A stretch of DNA of 64,000 nt from Rhodospirillaceae bacterium. Lineage in GTDB: Bacteria > Pseudomonadota > Alphaproteobacteria > MPNO01 > UBA2964. Both the position numbers and the translations under genes were made by a program. The notes under the pieces are model-generated. The model was given only the letters and a program-made list of their open reading frames with translations, ran no database searches and was not told the origin of the DNA. Location: contig PAPV01000013.1 of assembly GCA_002709075.1 (NCBI GenBank), positions 169,693-233,692 on the forward strand, written 5' to 3'. Positions 6,624-54,555 of the stretch are shown here, in pieces (position 1 is the first letter of the stretch; every line of letters begins with the position of its first letter).

Positions 6624-7712
6624 TCAGCGTTTCTTTAATAAAAGATCAACACGATTGGCTTTACCCCCATTCACCCGGGAGCCAAGAGCCCGCACATCAA
6701 TGCGAGTACTTCTAATGCCGGCACCAATCAGGCGAGAACGGACAGCAAGTGCGCGAGATAGGGATAGCCGCCTCGCTTGACTTTCGGACTTTCCATCGAT
6801 GCTTGCGTAGGCCATAAGCTGAATTCTAAGTGTGGGATCGGAATTTAGTTTTTTAGAAACTTCTTTTAAGGACAACTCGCTATCTGTTTCAATTTTAGCG
6901 GATCCGACAGCAAATTTAATTTGCCTAATGCTCTCAGTCTTCGAAATACCTGGTTCCAATGCTGCTACAGCAGCAGAGGTTTTTTTGTTAGGAATTTTCG
7001 ACACCGGCATGCTGGAAAACTTTGAAAGATTTTTTTTCTGTTTGTCTACAATTGGGGCATTTGGAACCCGAGGGGCAGCGGGCCCTGTAGTGGTCGCTGT
7101 ATTTTTTATCTCTTGCTTGCGGCGTACTTTTTTGACTCGGGATGTGTCAGTCGACAAGATTTTGTTTAATTTGGAAACGGATATCGATGCTTTTGTCTTT
7201 TGTTGGGGAAGCTTGGAACGAGAAGGCGTCTTTTTCGTAGCAGAAAATTTTGAAGACTGGGAAACTTTTTTTCTAGATATGCGTTTTTTCTTACTCGTTG
7301 GCGGACTTAACAAAGACAAGTCCTGCTTTTTTTTTGTTGAGGTAAATCCGATCTGACCAGCAGGCGGAACAAAGCGCCCGTTGCGTATTATAGGAAATCT
7401 TGGAGCTCTCGGTATTTTTTTAAAGGAGGGTTGATAAGTATTGGATATAGATAATTGTGTAGTCCCGCTCTGAACAGAGTTCCTCAGAGTTTTGTTTGCA
7501 CAAACATTACTAATATGCCTAGAAGCTGCTTTTCCTAACAAGGTTGAGGGAACATTGGGCGCAGTCCCAAGGTTTTCTAAAACACAATAATCAACCGATA
7601 CACTCTGTGCTATAACATTGGTTTTTGGAAACATAAAACCAACAGTTAGTATAAAAAAATACAACATTATTATAACTCTAGTAGAATTTCCTTTATTTTT
7701 GATTGCCCGCAT
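6624..7712 (-). CDS. Secreted lysine-rich protein with degenerate OmpA-like C-terminal domain
   Basis: Signal peptide (K-rich n-region, hydrophobic core, VIAQS). Long K/S/T/P-rich low-complexity linker. C-terminal LS.SRALAVRSRLIGAGI...NRVDLLL resembles an OmpA-like fold but lacks the GHTD motif. Start at ATG 7712 with GAGGGG RBS (ORF track extends to 7808). Confidence 0.55.
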   Translation of the reverse strand: MRAIKNKGNSTRVIIMLYFFILTVGFMFPKTNVIAQSVSVDYCVLENLGTAPNVPSTLLGKAASRHISNVCANKTLRNSVQSGTTQLSISNTYQPSFKKIPRAPRFPIIRNGRFVPPAGQIGFTSTKKKQDLSLLSPPTSKKKRISRKKVSQSSKFSATKKTPSRSKLPQQKTKASISVSKLNKILSTDTSRVKKVRRKQEIKNTATTTGPAAPRVPNAPIVDKQKKNLSKFSSMPVSKIPNKKTSAAVAALEPGISKTESIRQIKFAVGSAKIETDSELSLKEVSKKLNSDPTLRIQLMAYASIDGKSESQARRLSLSRALAVRSRLIGAGIRSTRIDVRALGSRVNGGKANRVDLLLKKR

Positions 7713-13102: not shown

Positions 13103-13196
13103 CCGTTTCTCCCAATCAATCTTAACAGACTAATTTTGCCTATCATTAAATCACTATTTTGCAATACAACCTGTTTAAAGTATGTTCCTTTAAGGC

Positions 13197-13622
13197 TCAA
13201 CTGATTCCAAACCAAATACGACAGTCATCTTCAGGACTTGAACTGAAAGTAAGATTTAATGTCTTCGGTACATGCCTAAAAAGAGCAACATTCTCTTCTG
13301 CGGCAATCTGCTGAATTTTATTTTCGACTGATGAATTTGCTGTCAAAGCGATTGCTTTGACACCCGATCTTATTGCCGCCAAAGCATCACCTGGTGCTGC
13401 TCCACAGTCTAATACAGCTTGAAGGGTTAGTTCTGGGAACTCCATGTTAATTTGATATGATAACTCCAAAAACCACAATGGCCCCATGTGAGCACTAGCA
13501 CCCCGTGCACTCCATATTGTTGCATTGTGCCCGTAACCAACTGCAGCTCGGCATACCGCGCGAGCGTCTCCAATGCCGTGTATAACAACAGGGCGGTTTG
13601 TGTTAAGTATACGGTAAGTCAT
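13197..13622 (-). CDS. Hypothetical protein (141 aa)
   Basis: ORF with codon usage consistent with neighbours; no family recognised. Confidence 0.4.
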   Translation of the reverse strand: MTYRILNTNRPVVIHGIGDARAVCRAAVGYGHNATIWSARGASAHMGPLWFLELSYQINMEFPELTLQAVLDCGAAPGDALAAIRSGVKAIALTANSSVENKIQQIAAEENVALFRHVPKTLNLTFSSSPEDDCRIWFGIS

Positions 13623-13854
13623 GAATTCGACTTTTTAAATTGTATATAACTATATCTATAGAACCAAATAGCACTTTTCTCAAATATCAGATGGCATAAA
13701 AGATTTAAAATGACTGGAATATTAGTCTACGTGATGCTTTAGAACAGTTGTCTATCCGATTGAATTTGATAAAAATATTATGATCTTTGTTGACCTGAGG
13801 GGCGTAGCAAGCTTATCTTAAAGGTCAATTTTTCTTGACCTTATTTGCTTTCTG

Positions 13855-14091
13855 ATGAGAGGCATAACCATTTCTAGCTTAAACGAAACACAAGATAGAT
13901 TACATAGGGCTCTGGACACACTTGAGGAGGCAGTTGAGAGAATCGTTTCAGGTACCGGTTCCGAGGAGTTGCGTAAAGAGCTTCACGAGATTCGTAATCG
14001 CTGTGAGTTTCTTGAGGAGAGACACTCTAAGATTTCTACTCAACTCGATCAAGTCATAGGACGGATGCATAAGATACTGAGGATGGAGTAA
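13855..14091 (+). CDS. DUF4164-like small coiled-coil protein
   Basis: 78-aa coiled-coil ORF, TAATG-overlapped with zapA. This is the conserved alphaproteobacterial position of DUF4164 upstream of zapA. Confidence 0.55.
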   Translation: MRGITISSLNETQDRLHRALDTLEEAVERIVSGTGSEELRKELHEIRNRCEFLEERHSKISTQLDQVIGRMHKILRME

Positions 14092-14402
14092 TGCCCCAAG
14101 TTGAGGTAACAATAAATAATCGGATTTATCAGATTGCTTGTGATGAAGGACAAGATGAACATTTAAAACGTCTGGCGGAATATGTAGACAAGCGAGTGCA
14201 GGAACTTGTTTCTGCTTTAGGCCAAGTTGGGGACTCCAGACTAATTGTAATGGCAAGTCTGTTAATTGCTGATGAATTATCTGAAACATACGCAAAACTT
14301 CAAAACGCTGCCAGCATAAAAACTGAAGATGCTGTTATTAATGTGACTGAATTAGCTGCACAACGAATCGAACATATTGCAGCTAAGCTAGAAGCCGTTT
14401 AA
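14091..14402 (+). CDS. zapA: Cell division protein ZapA
   Basis: 103 aa; V.V.I..R.Y.I.CDEGQ.EHL...A..VD ZapA N-terminal signature. Confidence 0.8.
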   Translation: MPQVEVTINNRIYQIACDEGQDEHLKRLAEYVDKRVQELVSALGQVGDSRLIVMASLLIADELSETYAKLQNAASIKTEDAVINVTELAAQRIEHIAAKLEAV

Positions 14403-14409
14403 CTTAACC

Positions 14410-14575
14410 TTGGGTGTGGCTGCGTGACACGCGAGAGGTATTAATCTCCGGGGCCTAACAACACCTAACGGGAGCCGTCTCTGTCGGAATCTTGGTTTCG
14501 TTATATGGCGCCCACCTGCGAAAGCGGGCCTAGGTGGATTGTAAATCGGACGTTCTTGTGGCTACGCCTTTTTTT
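14410..14575 (+). ncRNA. ssrS: 6S RNA (SsrS) candidate
   Basis: 238-nt GC-rich structured intergenic region between zapA and the 5-formyltetrahydrofolate cyclo-ligase gene. This is the conserved 6S RNA locus in alphaproteobacteria and E. coli. It contains internal stem CCACCTGCG-AAAG-CGGGCCTAGGTGG and ends in a T-run. Boundaries approximate. Confidence 0.45.
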
Positions 14576-14640
14576 ATTGATTTAAAAATATTTATCTGGG
14601 CAAAAAAATTCAAGTTCATTGTAGTATTAACAACGCTAAA

Positions 14641-42750: not shown

Positions 42751-44244
42751 TTATTGGTTAGGATTTTCAGGAAATACTAACGATTTTATTGATACGGGAA
42801 CTGCCCCAGACCCCTTCAGTTCAGCGCCAATATCGATATATTGAAACTCATTCAATGTAATACCATCAATAGAGATTATAGGGCCAGTATAATTAATTTC
42901 ATAGCGCGCATGATTCCCAAATACCCTACCTATGTCTCCACTGCACACTAAAATCAATGGTTTTCCGTCAGTTAATACCTCTTGCATCCCTTTAATAACT
43001 CCCGAGATAAAAGATTCAATTCGACCATACACAGCAGATCCATTCCAATCAAAACATAGAGCAACGGGACAGTTTGTTGTGTTTAAACTAAAGGTGTTTA
43101 GTGTGTTAAGAATTGTAGAACAAATAGCATTTTGATCAATTTCGTCAGTTTCGAGCATAAAGTTAGGTGCTATTACAGGTATGTTTTTTTGTGGAAGTAT
43201 GTCAGCCGGATGAATGAAATTAGTTGTTCCTGATAAATTTATTTTGTATTGAGATAATCCCACCACTGTGGCCCGAATACTTTCCACTGGTTCCATAATA
43301 TTTAGATCATGGGCAACAGCCATTGACTTAATTGCGGATGCGAGTTTGGATCCAACATCTATGTTTTGCTGCGTGGAATAATCATAAATATATTCTGCGA
43401 CTCCTCCTGAAAAAGTAACAGCATCAATTGTTCCATTCCATTTGATTGGGGGTAGCCTGTGCAAGTTTTTTGTAAGTCTGGATAGCGGCTTCTGAAGTAT
43501 GATTTCAGTTAGAACAATCCCCATTTTTTTCGCTACCCTTTCAAGGGACTCATCTGTAATATTTGTTCCAAGAACTGGTTGTAATCCGATTTCTTCAAAA
43601 ATTAAGTCTGCATTTTTTTCTATCCTGCAGATACAGCCATTGTCGTTGATAGCGATAAGTCTTGCACCGATATCAACAGTTGTTAAATCGATGATCTCGC
43701 CGTTAGAACAAATAGCAATCTTGGTGGTGCCTCCTCCAATATCTACATTCATAATTGTAGCACCAGTTTCTCTCGAATTAATTATCGCTCCAGATCCATG
43801 CGCCGCCATAATGGCTTCAAGCCGATCACCTGCAGCTACCGATATAAAATTTCCAGTTTCTAAAGAAAATAGCTCACCCAGCATTTGAGCATTTTTTTTT
43901 TCTAAAGCTGTGCCAGTGAGAATCAGAGCGCCTGTGTCCACTTCACGAGGTGATAAATTGGCTGCTTTATACTGTTTTTCAAGAAAGTCGCGTAAAGCAA
44001 ACTCATCAATAATATCCCTGTCTGAGAAAGGCGTTAGGAGAATCTCAGACTCATAAAGCAAACTTCTTTTTGATACCACAAATTGATCGGATGACCGTTT
44101 CATTTCGATTTCGGAAAATACTATATGGCAAGTTGCAGACCCTATGTCTATTCCTACGCTAGTAAGAGTTGTTTGTTGTTCGTCTGCGATATTATGCCCT
44201 GCACCTGCAAAAATAATTCTTCCATTGTCACTTTGCTGTTCCAT
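42751..44244 (-). CDS. EutA-like ASKHA-family ATPase (ethanolamine ammonia-lyase reactivase homolog)
   Basis: SVGIDIGSATCHIVFS N-terminal actin-fold phosphate-1 motif, NVDIGGGTTK phosphate-2 motif, C-terminus VPVSIKSLVFPE. All colinear with E. coli EutA (SVGIDLGTTTTQVIFS / NIDIGGGTS / VPVTVKSLAFPS). Confidence 0.7.
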   Translation of the reverse strand: MEQQSDNGRIIFAGAGHNIADEQQTTLTSVGIDIGSATCHIVFSEIEMKRSSDQFVVSKRSLLYESEILLTPFSDRDIIDEFALRDFLEKQYKAANLSPREVDTGALILTGTALEKKNAQMLGELFSLETGNFISVAAGDRLEAIMAAHGSGAIINSRETGATIMNVDIGGGTTKIAICSNGEIIDLTTVDIGARLIAINDNGCICRIEKNADLIFEEIGLQPVLGTNITDESLERVAKKMGIVLTEIILQKPLSRLTKNLHRLPPIKWNGTIDAVTFSGGVAEYIYDYSTQQNIDVGSKLASAIKSMAVAHDLNIMEPVESIRATVVGLSQYKINLSGTTNFIHPADILPQKNIPVIAPNFMLETDEIDQNAICSTILNTLNTFSLNTTNCPVALCFDWNGSAVYGRIESFISGVIKGMQEVLTDGKPLILVCSGDIGRVFGNHARYEINYTGPIISIDGITLNEFQYIDIGAELKGSGAVPVSIKSLVFPENPNQ

Positions 44245-44247
44245 TTA

Positions 44248-45480
44248 CTATCCACCACTGGAGAAATTCCAAGTGGTATGCTTGTCGTAATATCTGTTTT
44301 CCATTTGATTTTTTGCTCCATTTTTGCTGCATGCTAATTCAAATTCCTCGCGTATGGCCGGATCCTCCATCCAATAAGGTATGGATGTGCCACCAGGTTT
44401 GTTTACCTCTAATACTCCCTCATCGCTCACAAATTCGCCTGGGACGCCGGCTTGCTGGACGCGATGATTATTTGGACCATACCAAGCTAAAATTCGGAGA
44501 GGTTTTTCGCTGCAATTAAAGTGCTGATGAAACCAGCGAATACGTCGGATTGGACAAGCAGAAATCATGCCAACTGCCTCGTACTCAAGTCTCATTACTT
44601 GATCAGCATCGCCATTTTGGCCTGGTGTTGGGCCTAAATCTTCCGGCCAAGTATTACAATAACCCTGACCAGCTATAGATAAAAATACAGCCGCTTCGCC
44701 AGGGTAATACGCTCGCGAATACCGACCTGGAGGATATTCGCTAATGTATTGGTAAAATTTGTTATTGGCCATTTTTGGCTCAATCCTTCGATACCCGGGG
44801 GTGCGGCGATTATCCTTGTAGAGTTCTGTGGAAAAGATATTTGGAATAATGTTTGTTCTCCGCATGGCAAGCCCTCTAGAACAATCTTCTTCAGACCCGC
44901 TAGCAGTCTTGAAACTCTTTTCATCAGGATTGAAGCGCTTTTGAAATAACAACGTGCTGTTGAAAATAATATCCTCATCATCAAACAAGTTGAATACGTT
45001 TGGAGCAGATGTGCCAGCGAGGAGCAGTGCAGGGGTATTTGATGAATTTACTATTTTATGCCTAGCGTTTAACGGAATTGCGAAAAGTGATCCTTTTTCC
45101 CACTCAAATAATTCTGGTTTCTTTTCTTCATTTATCCAAATTTCTGTCGTACCTCTACCTTCTAATACAAAGACAACTTTTTCATAAATATGACGCTCTG
45201 TTTTCAAAGCTCCTGCTTTTGGGACTTCAACTAAATAAGAGCCCCATAGACCTTCCGTCCCAAAAAGCTGGATAAAAGCCCCTCGTCCCCCCATGCGTTT
45301 CCAGTTTCCCAGTGCGACATTTTGTAAGCAGGGAATGGAAATATCCCGAACAATGGGAATTTCTTGTTCTGACATAAACGTATCATATGGGGTTGGGCGT
45401 CTCTGCCATGCGGGGCTTCCAGCATACAAATCGCCATTTGGTTCGTGCCAATGTGGGGCGCCTGCGATATCATGTGGCAT
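44248..45480 (-). CDS. Bicupin-domain protein of unknown function
   Basis: 410 aa; two cupin-like modules, second with HQH....E metal-binding-type motif; 4-nt spacing to the upstream EutA-like gene. Confidence 0.45.
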   Translation of the reverse strand: MPHDIAGAPHWHEPNGDLYAGSPAWQRRPTPYDTFMSEQEIPIVRDISIPCLQNVALGNWKRMGGRGAFIQLFGTEGLWGSYLVEVPKAGALKTERHIYEKVVFVLEGRGTTEIWINEEKKPELFEWEKGSLFAIPLNARHKIVNSSNTPALLLAGTSAPNVFNLFDDEDIIFNSTLLFQKRFNPDEKSFKTASGSEEDCSRGLAMRRTNIIPNIFSTELYKDNRRTPGYRRIEPKMANNKFYQYISEYPPGRYSRAYYPGEAAVFLSIAGQGYCNTWPEDLGPTPGQNGDADQVMRLEYEAVGMISACPIRRIRWFHQHFNCSEKPLRILAWYGPNNHRVQQAGVPGEFVSDEGVLEVNKPGGTSIPYWMEDPAIREEFELACSKNGAKNQMENRYYDKHTTWNFSSGG

Positions 45481-47308: not shown

Positions 47309-48271
47309 ATGTTAATAAGGTCGAAAAGAGGTTGGGAATTACCTGAGTCAGATGCCACCGACGAAAGGATTTTCCACTCTCGAAGAAACTTAATTAAGGG
47401 TTTGGCATCCGGCGCTGTGCTTGCAGCGAGTATGCCTGTTTTCGGAAAAACAACCGAGAACGAAAATCTAAATTATTCTTTTTCAGTTCCCGTAAAAAAT
47501 AACAGATATAAATTAGATAGGGAACTAACGCCGCATAAACTCGCAACCACATATAATAATTTTTACGAATTTGGCTCACACAAACAAATTTCCGCAGATG
47601 CTCAGAAATTGAAGACGCATCCTTGGATGATTACAATCGATGGATTGGTCGAGGAAAAGATCAAAATAAATGCTCATGAGCTTTTTAAGCATTTTAATTT
47701 TGAGGAGAGAGTATATCGCTTCCGTTGCGTTGAAGCATGGTCTATGGCGTTACCTTGGATCGGGTTTCCGTTGGCGGAACTGGTTAAAATGGCTAAGCCT
47801 ACATCTGATGCGAAGTATTTGGTTATGCGAAGTTTTCAAGATCCAAAGATAGCAAGTGGCCAGCGACAATTTTGGTATCCTTGGCCTTATTTAGAAGCAC
47901 TGACCGTTGCAGAAGCTAAAAACGAGTTAGCGTTTATCGCTACCGGTGTTTATGGAAAACCCATACCTAATCAAATGGGGGCTCCATTACGATTGGTAGT
48001 ACCGTGGAAATATGGATTTAAATCCATAAAGTCGATTATAAGCTTTACTTTTACCAAGATAAGGCCAAAAACTTTTTGGGAAACAATACAACCTGCAGAG
48101 TACGGTTTTTGGGCTAATGTGAATCCTTTGGTGAGCCACCCACGTTGGAGCCAAAAAACTGAGAGACCACTTGGCAAGACTACAAGGATTAAAACCTTGT
48201 TGTATAATGGTTATGAGGAATATGTAGCTTATATGTATAAAAATCTTGTTACCGAAAATTTATTTCGTTGA
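47309..48271 (+). CDS. msrP: Protein-methionine-sulfoxide reductase catalytic subunit MsrP (YedY), molybdopterin-binding
   Basis: Twin-arginine signal (SRRNLIKGLASGAVLAA), RFRCVEAWSMALPWIGFPL and VPWKYGFKSIKSI motifs nearly identical to E. coli MsrP. Confidence 0.9.
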   Translation: MLIRSKRGWELPESDATDERIFHSRRNLIKGLASGAVLAASMPVFGKTTENENLNYSFSVPVKNNRYKLDRELTPHKLATTYNNFYEFGSHKQISADAQKLKTHPWMITIDGLVEEKIKINAHELFKHFNFEERVYRFRCVEAWSMALPWIGFPLAELVKMAKPTSDAKYLVMRSFQDPKIASGQRQFWYPWPYLEALTVAEAKNELAFIATGVYGKPIPNQMGAPLRLVVPWKYGFKSIKSIISFTFTKIRPKTFWETIQPAEYGFWANVNPLVSHPRWSQKTERPLGKTTRIKTLLYNGYEEYVAYMYKNLVTENLFR

Positions 48272-48282
48272 GATAAAAAAAA

Positions 48283-48304
48283 CCCGGGCATCAAGATGCC
48301 CGGG
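48283..48304. terminator. Bidirectional rho-independent terminator between convergent msrP and lysR
   Basis: Perfect 10-bp stem CCCGGGCATC-AA-GATGCCCGGG. A-run of 8 on the plus side gives a U8 tract for the minus-strand (trxB-lysR) transcript, and TTT follows on the plus side. Confidence 0.7.
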
Positions 48305-48537: not shown

Positions 48538-49431
48538 TTATCTTTTGTCCTCTTTTATGCGCCGCAAAAGGAAATCTCGTAATACAACAATTCTCCTTGA
48601 ATTGCGCATTTCTTCTGGATATACAAAATAAGCTTGGTACTGCGGTCCTTCGTGTTCTGGTAGAACTGGAACTAAACCACTCGTCATGTTTGCCATATAG
48701 TCTGGCAACGAAGCAATGCCCATGCCAGCGGCGCAGGCGCGAAAAATTCCGTATATATTATTGACTCGTAGAGCAGGATAATGCTCCTTGGAATTATTAC
48801 TAGCTGCATCTAGCAACCAATTAATGTTGGTTACGGTTGAATAGTAGGTTTCATCATAAGCAAGCAATTTGTGACCTTTTAGGTCCTCTAGTCGATGAGG
48901 CATACCCCAACGTTCCAAATAATCAGGTGCTGCATATGCTGCATGTTTCAGGGTAAAAAGTGGCCTCTGTATTAAATCCGGCTGTTCTGGCCTCTCCAGG
49001 CGGATAGCAACATCTGCTTGTCGCATCGATAGATTAAGTTGATCTTCACGAACAATTAAAGAAATCGCTATCTCCGGATACATTTCAACAAAGTCTTTGA
49101 GGCGCTCTGTCAGCCACATTGAGCCAAAGGCCACACTGGTTGTAATGCGTAAGGGGCCGCTCGGTCTATCAAGAGACTCTCCAATTGCGGCTTCAGCATC
49201 TCGGACACGAGTCGCTAGCTCCTGTGCTGTTTCATACAATGTCTCCCCTTGTTCAGTTAAAGCAAGACCTCGCGCATGTCTGTGAAACAAAGCAACACCT
49301 AGCGACTGTTCTAATGCACTTATTTGACGGCTTATTGATGACTGCGTTAAGCGGAGTCTCTCACTAGCGTGAGTGAAACTTCCTGCCTCAGCGACAGTAT
49401 GAAAAATCCTAAGCTTATCCCAGTTTAACAC
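48538..49431 (-). CDS. LysR family transcriptional regulator
   Basis: N-terminal HTH (FTHASERLRLTQSSISRQISALE) and LysR substrate-binding domain. Confidence 0.85.
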   Translation of the reverse strand: MLNWDKLRIFHTVAEAGSFTHASERLRLTQSSISRQISALEQSLGVALFHRHARGLALTEQGETLYETAQELATRVRDAEAAIGESLDRPSGPLRITTSVAFGSMWLTERLKDFVEMYPEIAISLIVREDQLNLSMRQADVAIRLERPEQPDLIQRPLFTLKHAAYAAPDYLERWGMPHRLEDLKGHKLLAYDETYYSTVTNINWLLDAASNNSKEHYPALRVNNIYGIFRACAAGMGIASLPDYMANMTSGLVPVLPEHEGPQYQAYFVYPEEMRNSRRIVVLRDFLLRRIKEDKR

Positions 49432-49441
49432 TGAAATTTAA

Positions 49442-50389
49442 CTACTTTGTTGGTTCAGAAAGATATTTTTCTACCTCTAGTGCAGCCATGCAGCCGGTGC
49501 CTGCTGCTGTTACTGCTTGGCGAAAGATCTTGTCTTGTACATCTCCCGCAGCAAAAACACCCGAAATATTTGTCGCAGTGCTATCTGGAGCAGTGATTAT
49601 GTATCCTTCTCTATCCATTGATATTTTGCCCGAGAAGATATCAGTGGATGGTGTGTGTCCTATGGCAATAAATAAGCCATGAACTGATAATTCATTTATT
49701 TCATTTGTCTTAACATTGCGTAATTTAATTGCTGTAACCCCTAGGGGGTTCTCATCACCAATAATTTCCTCCACCACACAGTCCCATATTGTCTGTATTT
49801 TTTCGTGTTCTAAAAGTCTTTGTTGCAGAATTTTTTCAGCTCTTAACTGACTCCTACGATGGATAAGTGTGACTTTATCCGCGTGGGTGGTAAGGTAAAG
49901 TGCTTCTTCCACCGCGGTATTTCCACCCCCGACTACAGCAACCTCTTTCCCACGATAAAAAAAACCGTCGCATGTTGCGCACGCGGAAACGCCGTATCCC
50001 TTGAATTTATCTTCTGATTCAAGACCCAACCATCGCGCCTTTGCTCCAGTTGCTACAATAACTGTATCAGCAGTAAAGGTATTACCTGAATCTGCGACTG
50101 CCGTGAACGGTTTTTTAGAAAAATCAATCGAGGTAATTAAGTCATTGAATATTTCTGTGCCGACGTGTTCCGCTTGCATCCGCATCTGCTCCATGAGCCA
50201 TGGTCCTTGTATCACGTCAGCAAATCCAGGAAAGTTTTCAACATCGGTAGTGATTGTCATCTGGCCTCCGGGTTCCATTCCGGATATTAACCTAGGTTGA
50301 AGGTTGGCTCGCGCCGTGTATATCGCTGCGGTGTAACCCGCCGCACCGGATCCGATAATGAGTACGGGTGAATGATATTTTTCGGTCAT
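49442..50389 (-). CDS. trxB: Thioredoxin-disulfide reductase
   Basis: GSGAAGYTAAIY FAD motif, redox CATCDG motif, GGGNTAVEEALYL NADPH motif. Confidence 0.95.
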   Translation of the reverse strand: MTEKYHSPVLIIGSGAAGYTAAIYTARANLQPRLISGMEPGGQMTITTDVENFPGFADVIQGPWLMEQMRMQAEHVGTEIFNDLITSIDFSKKPFTAVADSGNTFTADTVIVATGAKARWLGLESEDKFKGYGVSACATCDGFFYRGKEVAVVGGGNTAVEEALYLTTHADKVTLIHRRSQLRAEKILQQRLLEHEKIQTIWDCVVEEIIGDENPLGVTAIKLRNVKTNEINELSVHGLFIAIGHTPSTDIFSGKISMDREGYIITAPDSTATNISGVFAAGDVQDKIFRQAVTAAGTGCMAALEVEKYLSEPTK

Positions 50390-50404: not shown

Positions 50405-52300
50405 TTAAAATCCAAACATATGATCTAGACTGAAGGGGCCTTCCTCCGAGATCAGGCCGTGATAACCAAATAGGCGACAGCTTGTATCTCTTACAATTAT
50501 ATAAGATCCTGCGCCAGCTCGATCGAGGTCTTTATCTTTAAATAATTCGGAAATTCTTCTCAGCCGCGAGCCTCCACAGGGTATGCTTAATTTTACTTCC
50601 ACTATCTTTTTACCGTTTGGGTTTATCAGTGATAAGGAGGTATTGGAGTCATCATGCCATGGACTAGAAGCCGGATAGAGTAAATGGAGGAATGTGTCGA
50701 TTCCTGTTATGTCAACTCTCAGAAAAAGCCTAGTACTGAGCCCCGGCGGACGACTTGAGTAACTTTGCGGTTCATTCTTAAAGGTAAGGATAGTGTTAAA
50801 AATATGAGCGCCAAAGCTTGTTTCTGCTGTGTGACATGTTTCTTTATTTTCATATCGAAATAGGCCGTGAAGCCAGCCATCCACATCCGTGCCGTAAGTA
50901 AAATCATATATTAATTCTACGTGACCATATCTTTCATTGGTAAGAAAATTTGATGTCTCTAAAATTTCTTTATGACTGCGCGGTAATAATCCAAACTTAT
51001 GCGTAGCTATCTTATTGCCGTTGGGATCGAAAATAAGTGCTGCAATTGGAAGTTTGTTCTGCGCTGTAGACATTGGGGTAGGCAGTAAAGTAGAGCGCCA
51101 GACTCTTGCGGGTAAAATTGGAGCTGGCAGGATAAAACCTTTACCGACTAAATGTGTTAACTCCCTAATTTTAGGATCAGGTTTAAGATCAGCCCGTTCA
51201 ACATTTACATGGGCTATTCTTCGAACAGTTGGCCCCCCAGTTATCTCATATCTGGGCCTCACAAAATGCTTTCCAGCTTGTATTTCAATCTGCTGAGGCC
51301 ACATAGCGTTTGGCAACAAATCACCTATAGAGAGTGAGTAAGTTCCAAAGGATGGCACCTCCGTTTTAACTCTACAAATCTCAGCAGTACCCATTACATT
51401 TATGCCAATTTCGCCGGATGGAATACTGCACGGATGTGAGTTTTGTATCCAAAGTATTACGGTCTCACCTTTTCTTGGGGCAGGAAGTCCAGCATAAAAA
51501 TCTGATGGCCAAGCATTAGAATCGTGAGTGCAGGTTAAAAATTTTTGATTTTTACAGAAAATATCAAGAGCATATTTTACCACATCATGCCCCTGAACTC
51601 CCGAGAACTGAACGAACAACTGTCCAGTAAATTCCGGGAGGTTAAATCGCTCTCGAACTTTAGCGCTATCAATGGATATACTCATTCCAGCACCTTCAAT
51701 TTTTTCTGACCATTGGGCAATATTTTTACCTGCCTGATCGAATAGAATTAGATGTAACTTTACGTTTGTCGCACCGTAATTTGACCAGTAGTTGGCCGTA
51801 GTCAAACGTGTGGACATCCCGGATTCTTCTCGAAAGAAAGCGTAATTTGTTGCGAAATTTTCTTTGCTTAAATACGTTGATTTATTGGTTAACCAATTTT
51901 CGTCTACACGCATATCATCAAAACTTATAATATTGGCACCGTGCGGTATCAGGTGGTTTATGTGGTGTCTAAGTGGTTCTACGTCAAAGGCCGCAATAAA
52001 TATTGTTTTAGCGCCTGAATTTTGTAATTCCGTTACGGGTTCAGCAGATTGATTTGCAAGGAGAGATCCGATTCTTTCTATATCTTGAACGAAGGTGGCG
52101 ACAAATTTTACCGCACTGGTATTATAAAATTCAGAAAAACTTGAATATAATCCCAATGGGTCATAAAGAGCGGATGGTACTTCTTTTTCTAACTGCCTTA
52201 TAAGTTTTGAAGCTTTTTCTTTAACAGCAGGATGGCTAATTGCTTTATAGAAAATATTGCCGCCTTTTATATTACTAAAGGTTTGGATTTTGTGACCCAT
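50405..52300 (-). CDS. Hypothetical cytoplasmic protein (631 aa), no recognised domain
   Basis: Long ORF with uniform codon usage, no TM segments. TAATG stop/start overlap with the upstream 2OG-Fe(II) oxygenase-like gene implies translational coupling. Confidence 0.5.
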   Translation of the reverse strand: MGHKIQTFSNIKGGNIFYKAISHPAVKEKASKLIRQLEKEVPSALYDPLGLYSSFSEFYNTSAVKFVATFVQDIERIGSLLANQSAEPVTELQNSGAKTIFIAAFDVEPLRHHINHLIPHGANIISFDDMRVDENWLTNKSTYLSKENFATNYAFFREESGMSTRLTTANYWSNYGATNVKLHLILFDQAGKNIAQWSEKIEGAGMSISIDSAKVRERFNLPEFTGQLFVQFSGVQGHDVVKYALDIFCKNQKFLTCTHDSNAWPSDFYAGLPAPRKGETVILWIQNSHPCSIPSGEIGINVMGTAEICRVKTEVPSFGTYSLSIGDLLPNAMWPQQIEIQAGKHFVRPRYEITGGPTVRRIAHVNVERADLKPDPKIRELTHLVGKGFILPAPILPARVWRSTLLPTPMSTAQNKLPIAALIFDPNGNKIATHKFGLLPRSHKEILETSNFLTNERYGHVELIYDFTYGTDVDGWLHGLFRYENKETCHTAETSFGAHIFNTILTFKNEPQSYSSRPPGLSTRLFLRVDITGIDTFLHLLYPASSPWHDDSNTSLSLINPNGKKIVEVKLSIPCGGSRLRRISELFKDKDLDRAGAGSYIIVRDTSCRLFGYHGLISEEGPFSLDHMFGF

Positions 52301-52947
52301 TAGCCGATATCTCTCTTTGAGTTTTGGGTGAATGGATTGATTTTTTTAAGCATAGCAGAAATCTTGTGTCTCCGAATTTCGCGCTGAAGAACTTTTCGAC
52401 TCGTTACCCAATTTAATTGTATGACCTTGCGCATCCCATGAAATTGTTCGTGTCCATGCCATGAACGTTCGCTGCGACGAAAGGCTAACAACGTACCAGC
52501 CTCCGGAGGTACTTCGGCTGCATAATCCTGTAAATTATCCGCGGAGCGAAGAACACGCAATCTTCCACCAGAATTTGTCCACTCTGTATTCATGTAAATT
52601 AGTAACGTAAGTATTTTGGATGGAGTATCGGTATGAATCCGTCCATCTTTAAGCTGACTAAAACCTCGAACTGTAGCAGTGAGAGGTCGGCCAGTTAGAT
52701 CGATTCCGAATTTTTCTGCGAAGGCCATTTGGACACTTTTCCCAGACATTTCTGAAATTAATTCGGTAAATGCAGCTCCTGCCTTAACACTTGATATTGC
52801 GAAACTCCCTGCTGAGGGTAGAGAGGGATAGTCATTATCAATTTTTTTTATAGCTTCGGATTTTAAAAAACCAGGGACAATCAAATACTCATATGGGTCG
52901 GTGTTTAACGGCGTAGCCGCGAATTTTTTTAAATTAATCGCTGTCAT
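52300..52947 (-). CDS. 2OG-Fe(II) oxygenase-family protein (small, ~215 aa)
   Basis: HxD (RIHTDT) ... H (SWHGH) ... R (MRKV) arrangement on a double-stranded beta-helix scaffold typical of small prolyl-hydroxylase/PhyH-like 2OG oxygenases. Confidence 0.55.
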   Translation of the reverse strand: MTAINLKKFAATPLNTDPYEYLIVPGFLKSEAIKKIDNDYPSLPSAGSFAISSVKAGAAFTELISEMSGKSVQMAFAEKFGIDLTGRPLTATVRGFSQLKDGRIHTDTPSKILTLLIYMNTEWTNSGGRLRVLRSADNLQDYAAEVPPEAGTLLAFRRSERSWHGHEQFHGMRKVIQLNWVTSRKVLQREIRRHKISAMLKKINPFTQNSKRDIG

Positions 52948-53023
52948 ATTTAATAACCCACATGTAAAAAAGCATTTCGTTCAAAACAGTCATAATTGGG
53001 TGATGCACAAATTTCAAATATTA

Positions 53024-53983
53024 TCAACAAGCAAGTTTTAAGCGGGACTTAATTTTAGATGCAATCTGATCAAGATTGTCTACTTTTTCATGATGCCAAT
53101 TCTCAAATATGCCATCAAACTTCCTTGTTATTCCTCGTTCTACAAGCATTTTGTGAAAACAATCAAATTTCGAAGAGTGTCCGTCAAGATTAAAAATATA
53201 TACTGGTTTGGTTGTACTTGCTGCTTCTGTTACCATGTTCACTGAATCATTTGTTACAACAAAACCATCTGCCAATGCCAGAATTCCGAAATACGGATTC
53301 TCACCAAGACCATTCCAAATTTTATGTGGCACACCAGACAGTCCACTTCTAAATATTTCCAGGTTTGCTTGATCAGTGCGGCGTGAGGGTGTAACCACAA
53401 TCCCACCGCCAGATAACTTTACTGCAGTTTTAAGTAATTCAATAAGTTTTTGACAATTTTTTCTTGTCATTTGAAAACTGTTGTTAGAGCCGCCCAAAAG
53501 AACCGCAATCAGAGGTTTGGGTAAAATTGAATATTCGCGGTAAAATTTTTGTGCAGCTAAATTCAGCCGTGTATCGGTTATTCGGTGGAAAGCACCAGTC
53601 ATATTTATCGTGTTTGGAGCAGTTAAGTTATCGTGTATTGGTGCAATCACTAAGTCAAATTTTTTAAGAGACACACGCGGATGTTGTATCTGAATAGTTT
53701 GGGTTTTATTTTCTGACGCATGTTTTATAGCAACTGATATTGCAACTGTTTGTCGTCCGGATGCGACCAAGATGTCTGGCCAAGGAGGAGATAGTGTATC
53801 GCTTTTCGATTCCAGCGTTGAGAATGGAAATAGCCAAAGCTGAGGGGGAAGATGTGTCCATGGAAAGCGCGGAAATACTCTTTTGACCTGACTGTTGAGT
53901 CCAAGTCTTTCAACAAGTCCGAGGCATTGGCTTTCCATTCCAACTTTGCCATCACTTAATATCCAGCATGTTGGGTTCGTCAT
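53024..53983 (-). CDS. ELM1/DUF1022-family putative nucleotide-sugar transferase
   Basis: 319 aa; resembles alphaproteobacterial mitochondrial-fission-ELM1-like GT-B fold proteins (CWILSDGKVGMESQCLGL..., VTPSRRT motif). Confidence 0.6.
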   Translation of the reverse strand: MTNPTCWILSDGKVGMESQCLGLVERLGLNSQVKRVFPRFPWTHLPPQLWLFPFSTLESKSDTLSPPWPDILVASGRQTVAISVAIKHASENKTQTIQIQHPRVSLKKFDLVIAPIHDNLTAPNTINMTGAFHRITDTRLNLAAQKFYREYSILPKPLIAVLLGGSNNSFQMTRKNCQKLIELLKTAVKLSGGGIVVTPSRRTDQANLEIFRSGLSGVPHKIWNGLGENPYFGILALADGFVVTNDSVNMVTEAASTTKPVYIFNLDGHSSKFDCFHKMLVERGITRKFDGIFENWHHEKVDNLDQIASKIKSRLKLAC

Positions 53984-54081
53984 TTTTGAAAATACTTCGA
54001 TAGTTTGATTGGATTGAAATAAAATTTCATGATCTTATAATAGAAGTTCTTTATGCTGACAGCAATGCAGGACAATTCTTT

Positions 54082-54555
54082 GTGGTGAGAGATAAACTCG
54101 ATCGTATTGATTTACAAATTTTGCAGTATTTGCAAGACAATGGACGTATTACAAATGTTGATTTGGCATCAAAGATCGGTATTTCGTCTCCACCGTGCTT
54201 GCGCCGAGTCAGAGTACTTGAGAATAATGGCTCTATTCGTGGTTATCACGCTGATATAAACCCCGAATCACTTGGATATGGTGTTTTGGTCTTTGCTCAG
54301 GTTGGACTACACAGTCAGGCCGAGGCTGATCTTGCAGCGTTTGAGAGCTTAACGCGCTCTTGGGAGGAAGTACGAGAAGTTCACATGCTTGCGGGTGAAA
54401 CTGATTTTTTATTAAAAATTGTTGCGATTGACTGGGACTCTTATCAACGTTTTTTGACACAAAAATTAACACCTGCTCCAAATGTGAGTGTTATCAAATC
54501 GTCCCTCGCAATAAGGTCGGCTGTCCAGCGCCCGGGGGTTCCTATAAAAATATAA
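54082..54555 (+). CDS. lrp: Lrp/AsnC family transcriptional regulator
   Basis: LDRIDLQILQYLQDNGRITNVDLASKIGISSPPCLRRVRVLE HTH and RAM domain. Confidence 0.85.
   Translation: MVRDKLDRIDLQILQYLQDNGRITNVDLASKIGISSPPCLRRVRVLENNGSIRGYHADINPESLGYGVLVFAQVGLHSQAEADLAAFESLTRSWEEVREVHMLAGETDFLLKIVAIDWDSYQRFLTQKLTPAPNVSVIKSSLAIRSAVQRPGVPIKI

Follow-up and report, generated by a model that had tools for sequence, protein, structure and literature searches.

A possible lipopolysaccharide inner-core glycosylation cassette built on linked ELM1-family and X631 genes in Alphaproteobacteria

What do three adjacent genes upstream of a thioredoxin reductase gene do in a marine alphaproteobacterium, and which of them belong together? 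The genes lie within a 64,000-nucleotide stretch of contig PAPV01000013.1 (Rhodospirillaceae bacterium, assembly GCA_002709075.1), hereafter the window, and encode an ELM1/DUF1022 protein (here ELM1), a small Fe(II)/2-oxoglutarate (2OG) oxygenase and a 631-residue protein of an unnamed family that we call X631. A sequence-only reading had presented them as a three-gene module suggestive of a protein- or glycan-modifying system, with hydroxylation and then glycosylation as one example, perhaps linked to redox through the neighboring trxB. We find that the ELM1 and X631 genes are tightly linked in many genomes. We put at about 0.5 the probability that they form a lipopolysaccharide (LPS) inner-core glycosylation cassette, in which a transferase of the KdoT type, acting with 3-deoxy-D-manno-octulosonic acid (Kdo), has X631 as a new obligate partner and the oxygenase as an accessory hydroxylase.

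ELM1 and X631 genes are linked across genomic contexts

We located X631 loci in other genomes with alignment-based patterns and kept the best 80; a genome scan with single-sequence peptide patterns found nothing. The best 80 loci are mostly of Rhodospirillales type (Azospirillum, Nitrospirillum, Rhodocista, Pelagibius, Inquilinus, Tistlia, Kiloniellales and Stellaceae). In these 80 genome loci, one gene order recurs, carB-greA-lrp(-)-ELM1-(oxygenase)-X631-trxB-lysR, with lrp preceding ELM1 in most Rhodospirillales-type loci and lysR following trxB in most related loci, and in many Rhodospirillales-type genomes the collinear block runs on through msrP and aatA. Because this order recurs, we had to ask whether synteny by itself could account for the linkage.

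For linkage counts, we used 115 loci in which X631 had flanks of at least 1.5 kb in both directions and scored a neighbor when it lay within 5 kb (individual loci are identified below by L numbers). ELM1 was present in 97 of the 115 loci (84%) and directly abutted X631 in 28; trxB was present in 80 (70%), compared with 51 (44%) for the oxygenase. The module is therefore conserved and co-occurs in many other genomes, as the sequence-only reading required, but not as a fixed unit of three genes: with the oxygenase found in just 44% of loci, ELM1 and X631 are what make up the conserved core.

Divergent X631 members (35-45% identical to the window protein) have ELM1 immediately upstream, with a gap of 0-25 nt or an overlap (L081, L083, L084/L085, L086 and L091). 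These loci lack trxB, lrp and the oxygenase. L086 and L091 are bare ELM1-X631 pairs, and L084/L085 have an ELM1-X631-mnmC core with overlapping stop and start. The same core in L081 is next to genes for an LpxL-like protein (lipid A acyltransferase type), a GT2 enzyme, a Wzy_C O-antigen ligase, a GDSL protein and a GT4 enzyme. In L083, a WecA-like Glycos_transf_4 gene lies directly 5′ of ELM1, after which come X631 and then Fic; genes for epimerase, GT4 and AsnB are found further downstream. A soil clade carries the bare pair amid GGDEF/EAL, aldo-keto reductase, MFS, polysaccharide deacetylase or ABC transporter genes and has no trxB. In one clade, the order is permuted to oxygenase-X631-ELM1, again with trxB absent (L092, 3549-6983; L108; L133). 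Stellaceae-type loci have genes for a double-PAP2 membrane phosphatase and a PMT_2/ArnT-like glycosyltransferase of the GT-C class between ELM1 and X631 (Table 1); these resemble genes for lipid A dephosphorylation and sugar addition. In L087, ELM1 lies 4 kb from X631 and adjoins AsmA. Envelope-glycan genes flank or split the pair in three lineages, with AsmA beside ELM1 in a fourth.

These arrangements bear on the simplest explanation, that there is no functional module and that the adjacency is frozen synteny only, as the long block collinear from carB to aatA would allow. ELM1 and X631 abut in at least four unrelated genomic contexts, however, also in permuted order, and stop/start overlaps and gaps of 0-25 nt recur. 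We regard the absence of any module as very improbable. Pure synteny is largely refuted for ELM1-X631 and still stands for trxB and lysR.

A few loci showed further features. A TMEM164-family membrane protein gene lies just upstream of the permuted cluster in L133. In L081 (66% GC) and L084 (48% GC), a small zf-CHCC (PF10276) gene (6626-6835 and 2381-2593, respectively) is divergently paired with ELM1 and mnmC follows X631, which suggests a second stable cassette context. X631 loci with alphaproteobacterial-type neighbors also occur in metagenome-assembled genomes (MAGs) labeled Anaerolineae, Competibacteraceae and Methylophilaceae (L014, L053, L054 and L058); the order in L054 and L058 is oxygenase-ELM1-X631. 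Their presence in these MAGs could reflect binning contamination or horizontal transfer.

The adjacency of trxB raises a second possibility, that thioredoxin reductase is the functional partner of X631, whether or not the oxygenase takes part; X631 might then be an enzyme that depends on thioredoxin, say, or a factor under redox control. X631 and trxB are separated by 15 nt in the window, where the terminator comes only after lysR, and Azospirillum keeps X631-trxB without ELM1. Nevertheless, the 70% of loci with trxB do not include any of the X631 members that are 45% or less identical to the window protein and have readable flanks, nor the soil clade. X631 also lacks a conserved CxxC or cysteine pair; C608 is its only near-universal cysteine. 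Because trxB-lysR share a long synteny block with carB-greA-lrp, their adjacency may be inherited rather than functional; it is confined to that block and is lost in divergent lineages. A role with thioredoxin reductase is thus scarcely probable, and the redox link drawn from the position of trxB does not hold up. The conspicuous adjacency of trxB is a trap for guilt-by-association. From gene order, we conclude that the conserved cassette is ELM1 plus X631, with the oxygenase as a lineage-specific accessory and trxB-lysR as neighbors by descent.

The ELM1 protein and a possible inner-core step

The PF06258 (ELM1) profile covers the window protein over its full length (319.5 bits versus a cut-off of 27, E = 2.6e-95 in Pfam), with residues 15-315 aligning to model positions 2-304 of 304. 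Sequence searches detected no relative of solved structure. The sole characterized bacterial enzyme of the family comes from Acinetobacter baumannii, where the "ELM1-like" protein A1S_2903 was tied in 2024 to the third Kdo of the inner core (PMC10936431). In 2025, it was reconstituted as KdoT, a cytidine monophosphate (CMP)-Kdo transferase that adds KdoIII onto Kdo2-lipid A independently of WaaA, breaking the rule that WaaA adds all inner-core Kdo (PMC12856342). In vitro, KdoT transfers Kdo from CMP-Kdo to Kdo2-lipid IVA, and its acceptor is a lipid-linked sugar, not a protein (PMC12856342). R180, in an invariant SRRT motif of the C-terminal domain, is required for activity; H109-D110 are conserved in the N-terminal domain, yet the H109A and D110A enzymes stay active (PMC12856342). 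A homolog from Rickettsia, itself an alphaproteobacterium, restores the core in a kdoT mutant (PMC12856342). In vivo, KdoT and a second enzyme, GnaT, are co-dependent (PMC10936431; PMC12856342). Our literature searches on DUF1022, on ELM1 with LPS and on "SM-20-related protein" found nothing beyond these two papers.

Both KdoT motifs occur in the window protein. The SRRT motif is S200-R201-R202-T203, within TPSRRTD, and is unchanged across all 14 aligned X631-linked ELM1 proteins, even where the surrounding genes are quite dissimilar; the pair H117-D118 is unchanged in the same 14 proteins. We therefore class ELM1 as a putative inverting glycosyltransferase of the KdoT family. We infer its GT-B fold, with two Rossmann-like domains, from family membership and the KdoT model (PMC12856342). 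The resemblance to GT-B nucleotide-sugar transferases noted from the sequence was thus well founded, and a glycan-modification role is reasonable because the ELM1 family has been shown biochemically to include a GT-B nucleotide-sugar (CMP-Kdo) transferase (PMC12856342).

If the cassette serves the LPS inner core, ELM1 would be a peripheral inverting GT-B enzyme at the cytoplasmic face of the inner membrane. It would add to the LPS inner core, at Kdo2-lipid A, a sugar of anionic type, most likely Kdo donated by CMP-Kdo, the SRRT arginines positioning the donor carboxylate as in A. baumannii KdoT. X631 would be the obligate partner of this step, paralleling the co-dependence of KdoT and GnaT, and would either catalyze a further reaction on that lipid-linked intermediate or serve as a subunit that presents or locks the substrate. 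Where present, the oxygenase would hydroxylate the product, the donor sugar or a neighboring group, resembling the Kdo hydroxylase KdoO in function, not in descent. trxB and lysR would be co-transcribed neighbors retained from an older alphaproteobacterial gene order and would stand outside the chemistry. In this scheme, we infer that LPS is the substrate and Kdo the sugar, as well as whatever part X631 plays in catalysis. In favor of the scheme we count the family and motifs of ELM1, its linkage to X631 and the persistence of that linkage across contexts, the envelope-glycan neighbors, the strong conservation and compact predicted model of X631, and the intact active site of the oxygenase (see below for the last two proteins).

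The strong ELM1-X631 linkage leaves the substrate unspecified. The pair might instead serve another glycoconjugate of the envelope or cytoplasm (a different glycolipid, a primer for capsule or polysaccharide, or a metabolite in solution), with a sugar other than Kdo and X631 as a carbohydrate-binding or carbohydrate-processing enzyme. The general polysaccharide genes at some loci (WecA-like, epimerase, GT4, AsnB and polysaccharide deacetylase) would fit such a role. So would the predicted β-sandwich array of X631 (see below): arrays of this kind with conserved aromatic, histidine and acidic residues are common in carbohydrate-active proteins, and GH2 accessory domains are among its structural matches. 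However, SRRT, with which KdoT positions the carboxylate of Kdo, does not vary in X631-linked ELM1, and lipid A-specific neighbors exist (LpxL-like in one case, PAP2 with ArnT-like in the other). We consider a different glycoconjugate possible, if somewhat unlikely.

X631 and the accessory oxygenase

Neither Pfam and NCBIfam nor PDB sequences, PADLOC and PHROGs yielded a match to X631. Searches of PDB chains with the single sequence and with a 31-sequence profile gave nothing meaningful, and a Pfam scan of all 31 members gave only noise. The expectation that the protein would match no known enzyme family was thus confirmed by Pfam, NCBIfam, PDB sequence and profile searches. The statement that none of the three proteins has an obvious named ortholog is correct for X631, which matched no known family; it is outdated for ELM1, whose family includes KdoT, and the oxygenase is sometimes named "SM-20-related protein". 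PADLOC returned only a generic 2OG-domain match for the oxygenase and nothing for ELM1 or X631, and we rejected anti-phage defense as a role for the module.

The family is large. X631 relatives form more than 4,640 clusters at 90% identity, with 53-67% identity to the window protein among the best 120 clusters listed, and at least 593 GTDB species representatives encode X631. An exhaustive hidden Markov model (HMM) search of 1.84 billion representatives gave 758 matches (representatives at 50% identity). The best 150 HMM matches listed are all X631-like, about 25 of them full-length and the others fragments or frameshifted products; among these 150, we found no other architecture, no ELM1 fusion and no remote functional family. 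Identity across orders is 50-60% for X631 versus approximately 40-50% for the neighboring ELM1, which ranks X631 with the better-conserved proteins that Rhodospirillales-type Alphaproteobacteria encode.

Among 31 X631 sequences, 190 columns are invariant, approximately 30% of the protein. After adding members down to 35% identity, 59 positions remain invariant, mainly His, Asp, Arg, Asn, Tyr, Trp and Gly. These family-wide invariants include H259-D260-x-N262, R348-x-R350-Y351, H364-x-N366..R369, W476-x-H478, H499..N502, E510-P-Q-x-Y514, R609-L-F-G and D626-H627, and the C-terminal DHMFGF is also invariant. Judged by its alignment, the conservation of X631 appears enzyme-grade, and this family without any known relative would be the novel part of the module. 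We conjecture that sugars bearing carboxylates or phosphates could be bound well by its invariant Arg, His, Asn and Tyr residues.

X631 is a soluble protein of 71 kDa. An AlphaFold2 model built from the 31-sequence alignment was confident and compact, with a mean predicted local distance difference test score (pLDDT) of 84.6 and a predicted template modeling (pTM) score of 0.88. It consists of a Rossmann-like α/β N-terminal domain (residues ∼16-130) followed by four β-sandwich domains (∼146-262, 268-370, 391-500 and 534-631), between which hhalign found no significant internal repeat. Two segments are near-invariant in sequence yet have pLDDT <50: residues 1-14 (window ∼52259-52300, minus strand; MxLxIETFSNVKGG), which are unstructured in the model, and the loop 503-524 (window ∼50729-50794, minus strand; EPQSYxGxPPGLS). 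Both are candidates for folding induced by a partner or substrate.

A Foldseek search of the PDB with the full model returned the macroglobulin (MG) ring of complement C3, GH2 accessory domains and transglutaminase barrel domains, all with template modeling (TM) scores of approximately 0.1. We treated these matches as generic similarity to β-sandwich arrays of the immunoglobulin/fibronectin type III (Ig/FnIII) kind. To avoid swamping by β-sandwich matches, we also modeled the N-terminal domain alone. Its best match was the NAD(H)-binding domain of Rex, with a TM score of 0.44. This is too weak to call a Rex-type Rossmann domain, and the glycine-rich nucleotide loop is absent from X631.

Several observations weigh against an inner-core role for the cassette. 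The X631 model lacks a recognizable catalytic fold, whether of a glycosyltransferase, kinase, hydrolase or other enzyme, and we know of no LPS enzyme with this architecture. The likeness of ELM1 to KdoT established here is one of family (PF06258) and motifs. PF06258 may hold several specificities, and plant ELM1 acts in mitochondrial fission. ELM1 is missing within 7 kb of X631 in Azospirillum-type loci, where X631-trxB have PadR, Rrf2 and cysK upstream, and ELM1 is not near X631 in L082 (MFS and SDR neighbors) or L090 (flagellar neighbors). In addition, the window and most Rhodospirillales-type loci are flanked by housekeeping genes (carAB, greA, lrp, trxB, uvrB/C and dnaG) rather than LPS genes, and LPS-gene contexts are limited to a handful of lineages.

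The oxygenase matches PF13640 (42.1 bits versus a cut-off of 27, E = 1.7e-10 in Pfam), so that both families expected for the two smaller proteins, PF06258 and PF13640, were found. Its HxD...H site is intact, with H105-x-D107 and H164/H166 invariant in 16 homologs, as is R173, the basic residue for the C5 carboxylate of 2OG. Its closest solved relatives are PDB 9blq, a "putative hydroxylase" (E = 7.6e-13), and 9ei6, which resembles prolyl 4-hydroxylases (P4H). The deposited identical protein is CMM44_08080, a hypothetical protein of a marine Rhodospirillaceae MAG, which assigns the window to that group; homologs are labeled "SM-20-related protein" (EGLN/P4H type) by JGI. At E ≤0.1, a Pfam scan gave PF13640 and PF13661 only. 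As neither PF11004 nor PF05118 was among these matches, we rejected assignment to KdoO or LpxO. The cyclophane-peptide oxygenase YhhC (NF041706) was also rejected, with 28.8 bits versus a curated cut-off of 150. By profile and motif, the protein is predicted to be an ordinary small 2OG enzyme of the P4H/"SM-20-related" type.

A P4H-type oxygenase encoded with a glycosyltransferase invites another explanation, that the oxygenase hydroxylates a residue of X631 or another protein and ELM1 then glycosylates it, perhaps for O2 or redox sensing alongside trxB. All three proteins are soluble, and the oxygenase gene appears translationally coupled to that of X631 through the TAATG overlap (Table 1). 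Close relatives of X631 keep invariant proline motifs (GLPAP 271-275, LPAPxLP 391-397 and LPTPM 406-410) in addition to the conserved flexible loop 503-524. However, the proline motifs are partly changed in divergent members, whose readable loci show no oxygenase, and ELM1-X631 persists where the oxygenase is missing. In a comparison of 66 sequences from oxygenase-positive loci with 59 from oxygenase-negative loci, no X631 position was ≥95% conserved in the former and ≤50% in the latter. The lipid-linked acceptor of KdoT also argues against a protein target. Nothing favors the proposed sequence of protein hydroxylation and glycosylation over the alternatives, no X631 residue being specific to oxygenase-containing lineages, and we judge it improbable.

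A more radical version makes X631 itself the target or sensor. Rather than an LPS enzyme, X631 would be a cytoplasmic protein hydroxylated by the oxygenase and then glycosylated by ELM1, in a prokaryotic counterpart of Skp1 hydroxyproline glycosylation that possibly reports O2 or redox state to the co-transcribed trxB-lysR. We give this idea little credence. A less radical departure from the inner-core cassette is that X631 founds a new class of enzyme fold for a still-unassigned step on Kdo2-lipid A.

The locus in the window and its known counterparts

In the window, five closely packed genes (ELM1, the oxygenase, X631, trxB and lysR) occupy the minus strand between 48.5 and 54.0 kb (Table 1). 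The description of three co-oriented genes upstream of trxB-lysR was accurate in all coordinates and in every checkable detail, including the TAATG overlap and the absence of transmembrane segments from X631; the maximum 19-residue Kyte-Doolittle mean is ≤1.26, and we found no transmembrane-like segment in ELM1, the oxygenase or X631. The three are genuine genes rather than chance open reading frames (ORFs), because each has thousands of homologs whose N termini agree with the called starts.

Table 1. Features of the locus (window coordinates) and of related loci (locus coordinates)
Feature	Location	Strand	Evidence
ELM1/DUF1022 gene, 319 aa	53983..53024	-	PF06258 match
Small Fe(II)/2-oxoglutarate oxygenase gene, 215 aa	52947..52300	-	PF13640 match
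X631 gene, 631 aa, unnamed family	52300..50405	-	no library match
trxB (thioredoxin-disulfide reductase)	50389..49442	-	TIGR01292, 410 bits versus cut-off 343
LysR-family regulator gene	49431..48538	-	PF00126 and PF03466
Oxygenase stop/X631 start overlap, TAATG	52300-52304	-	read off sequence
Intrinsic-terminator-like hairpin after lysR	48304..48283	-	9-bp stem, 7 GC pairs, T-run
Lrp/AsnC regulator gene, divergent from ELM1	54082..54555	+	PF13412 and PF01037
Promoter-like site	54014-54041	+	
PAP2 and ArnT-like insertion between ELM1 and X631	L020 3850-6904; equivalents in L023, L034, L037, L055, L062, L063, L065		

Gaps of 76 nt and 10 nt separate ELM1 from the oxygenase gene and trxB from lysR, respectively, and trxB is probably co-transcribed with X631. 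lysR is the last gene of the apparent transcription unit. The hairpin that follows it is the only convincing terminator-like one, a second, weak match lying within the trxB coding region, and is the probable 3′ end of the unit. The divergent Lrp/AsnC gene marks the upstream edge of the module, with greA, carB and carA beyond it. The 98-nt intergenic region at 53984-54081 must hold the promoters.

Downstream of lysR, the window encodes an MsrP/YedY-type molybdopterin oxidoreductase (47309-48271, plus strand) with a twin-arginine-like N terminus, SRRNLIKGLA. Between msrP and lysR there is no ORF ≥80 aa, and so no MsrQ-like gene. Many related loci likewise show msrP and an aminotransferase gene in synteny downstream of lysR. 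At 42751-45480 on the minus strand, a gene for an EutA-like protein (PF06277, E = 1.9e-115, 497 aa) comes directly after one for a 410-aa protein in which we detected a cupin domain and no other; the pair sits between uvrB and an aspartate-aminotransferase-like gene, and its nearest large neighbors are not ethanolamine-utilization genes. A 6S/SsrS RNA gene (Rfam RF00013, 52.8 bits versus a gathering score of 46.4) is present at 14414-14568 on the plus strand, within a 1.5-kb stretch (13103-14640) that lacks an ORF ≥150 aa. No tRNA genes were found in the 64 kb.

Four known systems invite comparison with the ELM1-X631 module. In plants (Arabidopsis and Marchantia), ELM1 recruits DRP3 to mitochondrial fission sites. 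It shares the Pfam family of the window protein but is an adaptor on the outer mitochondrial membrane.

In the Skp1 pathway of Dictyostelium and Toxoplasma, the P4H PhyA hydroxylates a proline, which Gnt1 and further glycosyltransferases then glycosylate. The window, too, has an oxygenase of the P4H type and a glycosyltransferase that is soluble, here encoded together with a soluble protein that is conserved. It differs in that the window-type oxygenase is often absent and the ELM1 family acts on lipid-linked Kdo, not hydroxyproline.

KdoO (Kdo 3-hydroxylase, PF11004) and LpxO (lipid A acyl hydroxylase, PF05118) are Fe(II)/2OG dioxygenases that modify Kdo2-lipid A. The window oxygenase likewise has an intact HxD...H site and is encoded beside a Kdo-transferase-type gene, and by analogy it could plausibly yield an inner-core sugar or acyl chain that bears a hydroxyl group. 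Unlike these enzymes, it belongs to neither family, is small (215 aa) and is of the P4H type, and more than half of the loci do without it.

The closest counterpart is KdoT. In A. baumannii, KdoT and GnaT/LpsB add KdoIII and then N-acetylglucosaminuronic acid (GlcNAcA) to Kdo2-lipid A (PMC10936431; PMC12856342). KdoT is, like the window protein, a soluble or peripheral member of PF06258 of approximately 320 aa with SRRT and the H-D pair. Its gene, like that of ELM1 with X631, has a close partner gene whose product the same step probably requires, and the alphaproteobacterial homolog from Rickettsia works in A. baumannii. The systems differ in that GnaT is a GT4 enzyme whereas X631 has no glycosyltransferase fold, and in that the window locus has housekeeping neighbors rather than a core oligosaccharide cluster around it and adds a 2OG oxygenase. 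ELM1 adds a member to the KdoT family, and on the inner-core reading the module is KdoT-type inner-core assembly with a different partner. The tie to a KdoT-type transferase gives X631, a family without a proposed role, a concrete and testable setting. If ELM1 and X631 do act jointly on the inner core, KdoT-type chemistry extends to many marine and soil Alphaproteobacteria, a new protein class joins LPS assembly and the role of bacterial ELM1 proteins comes nearer an answer.

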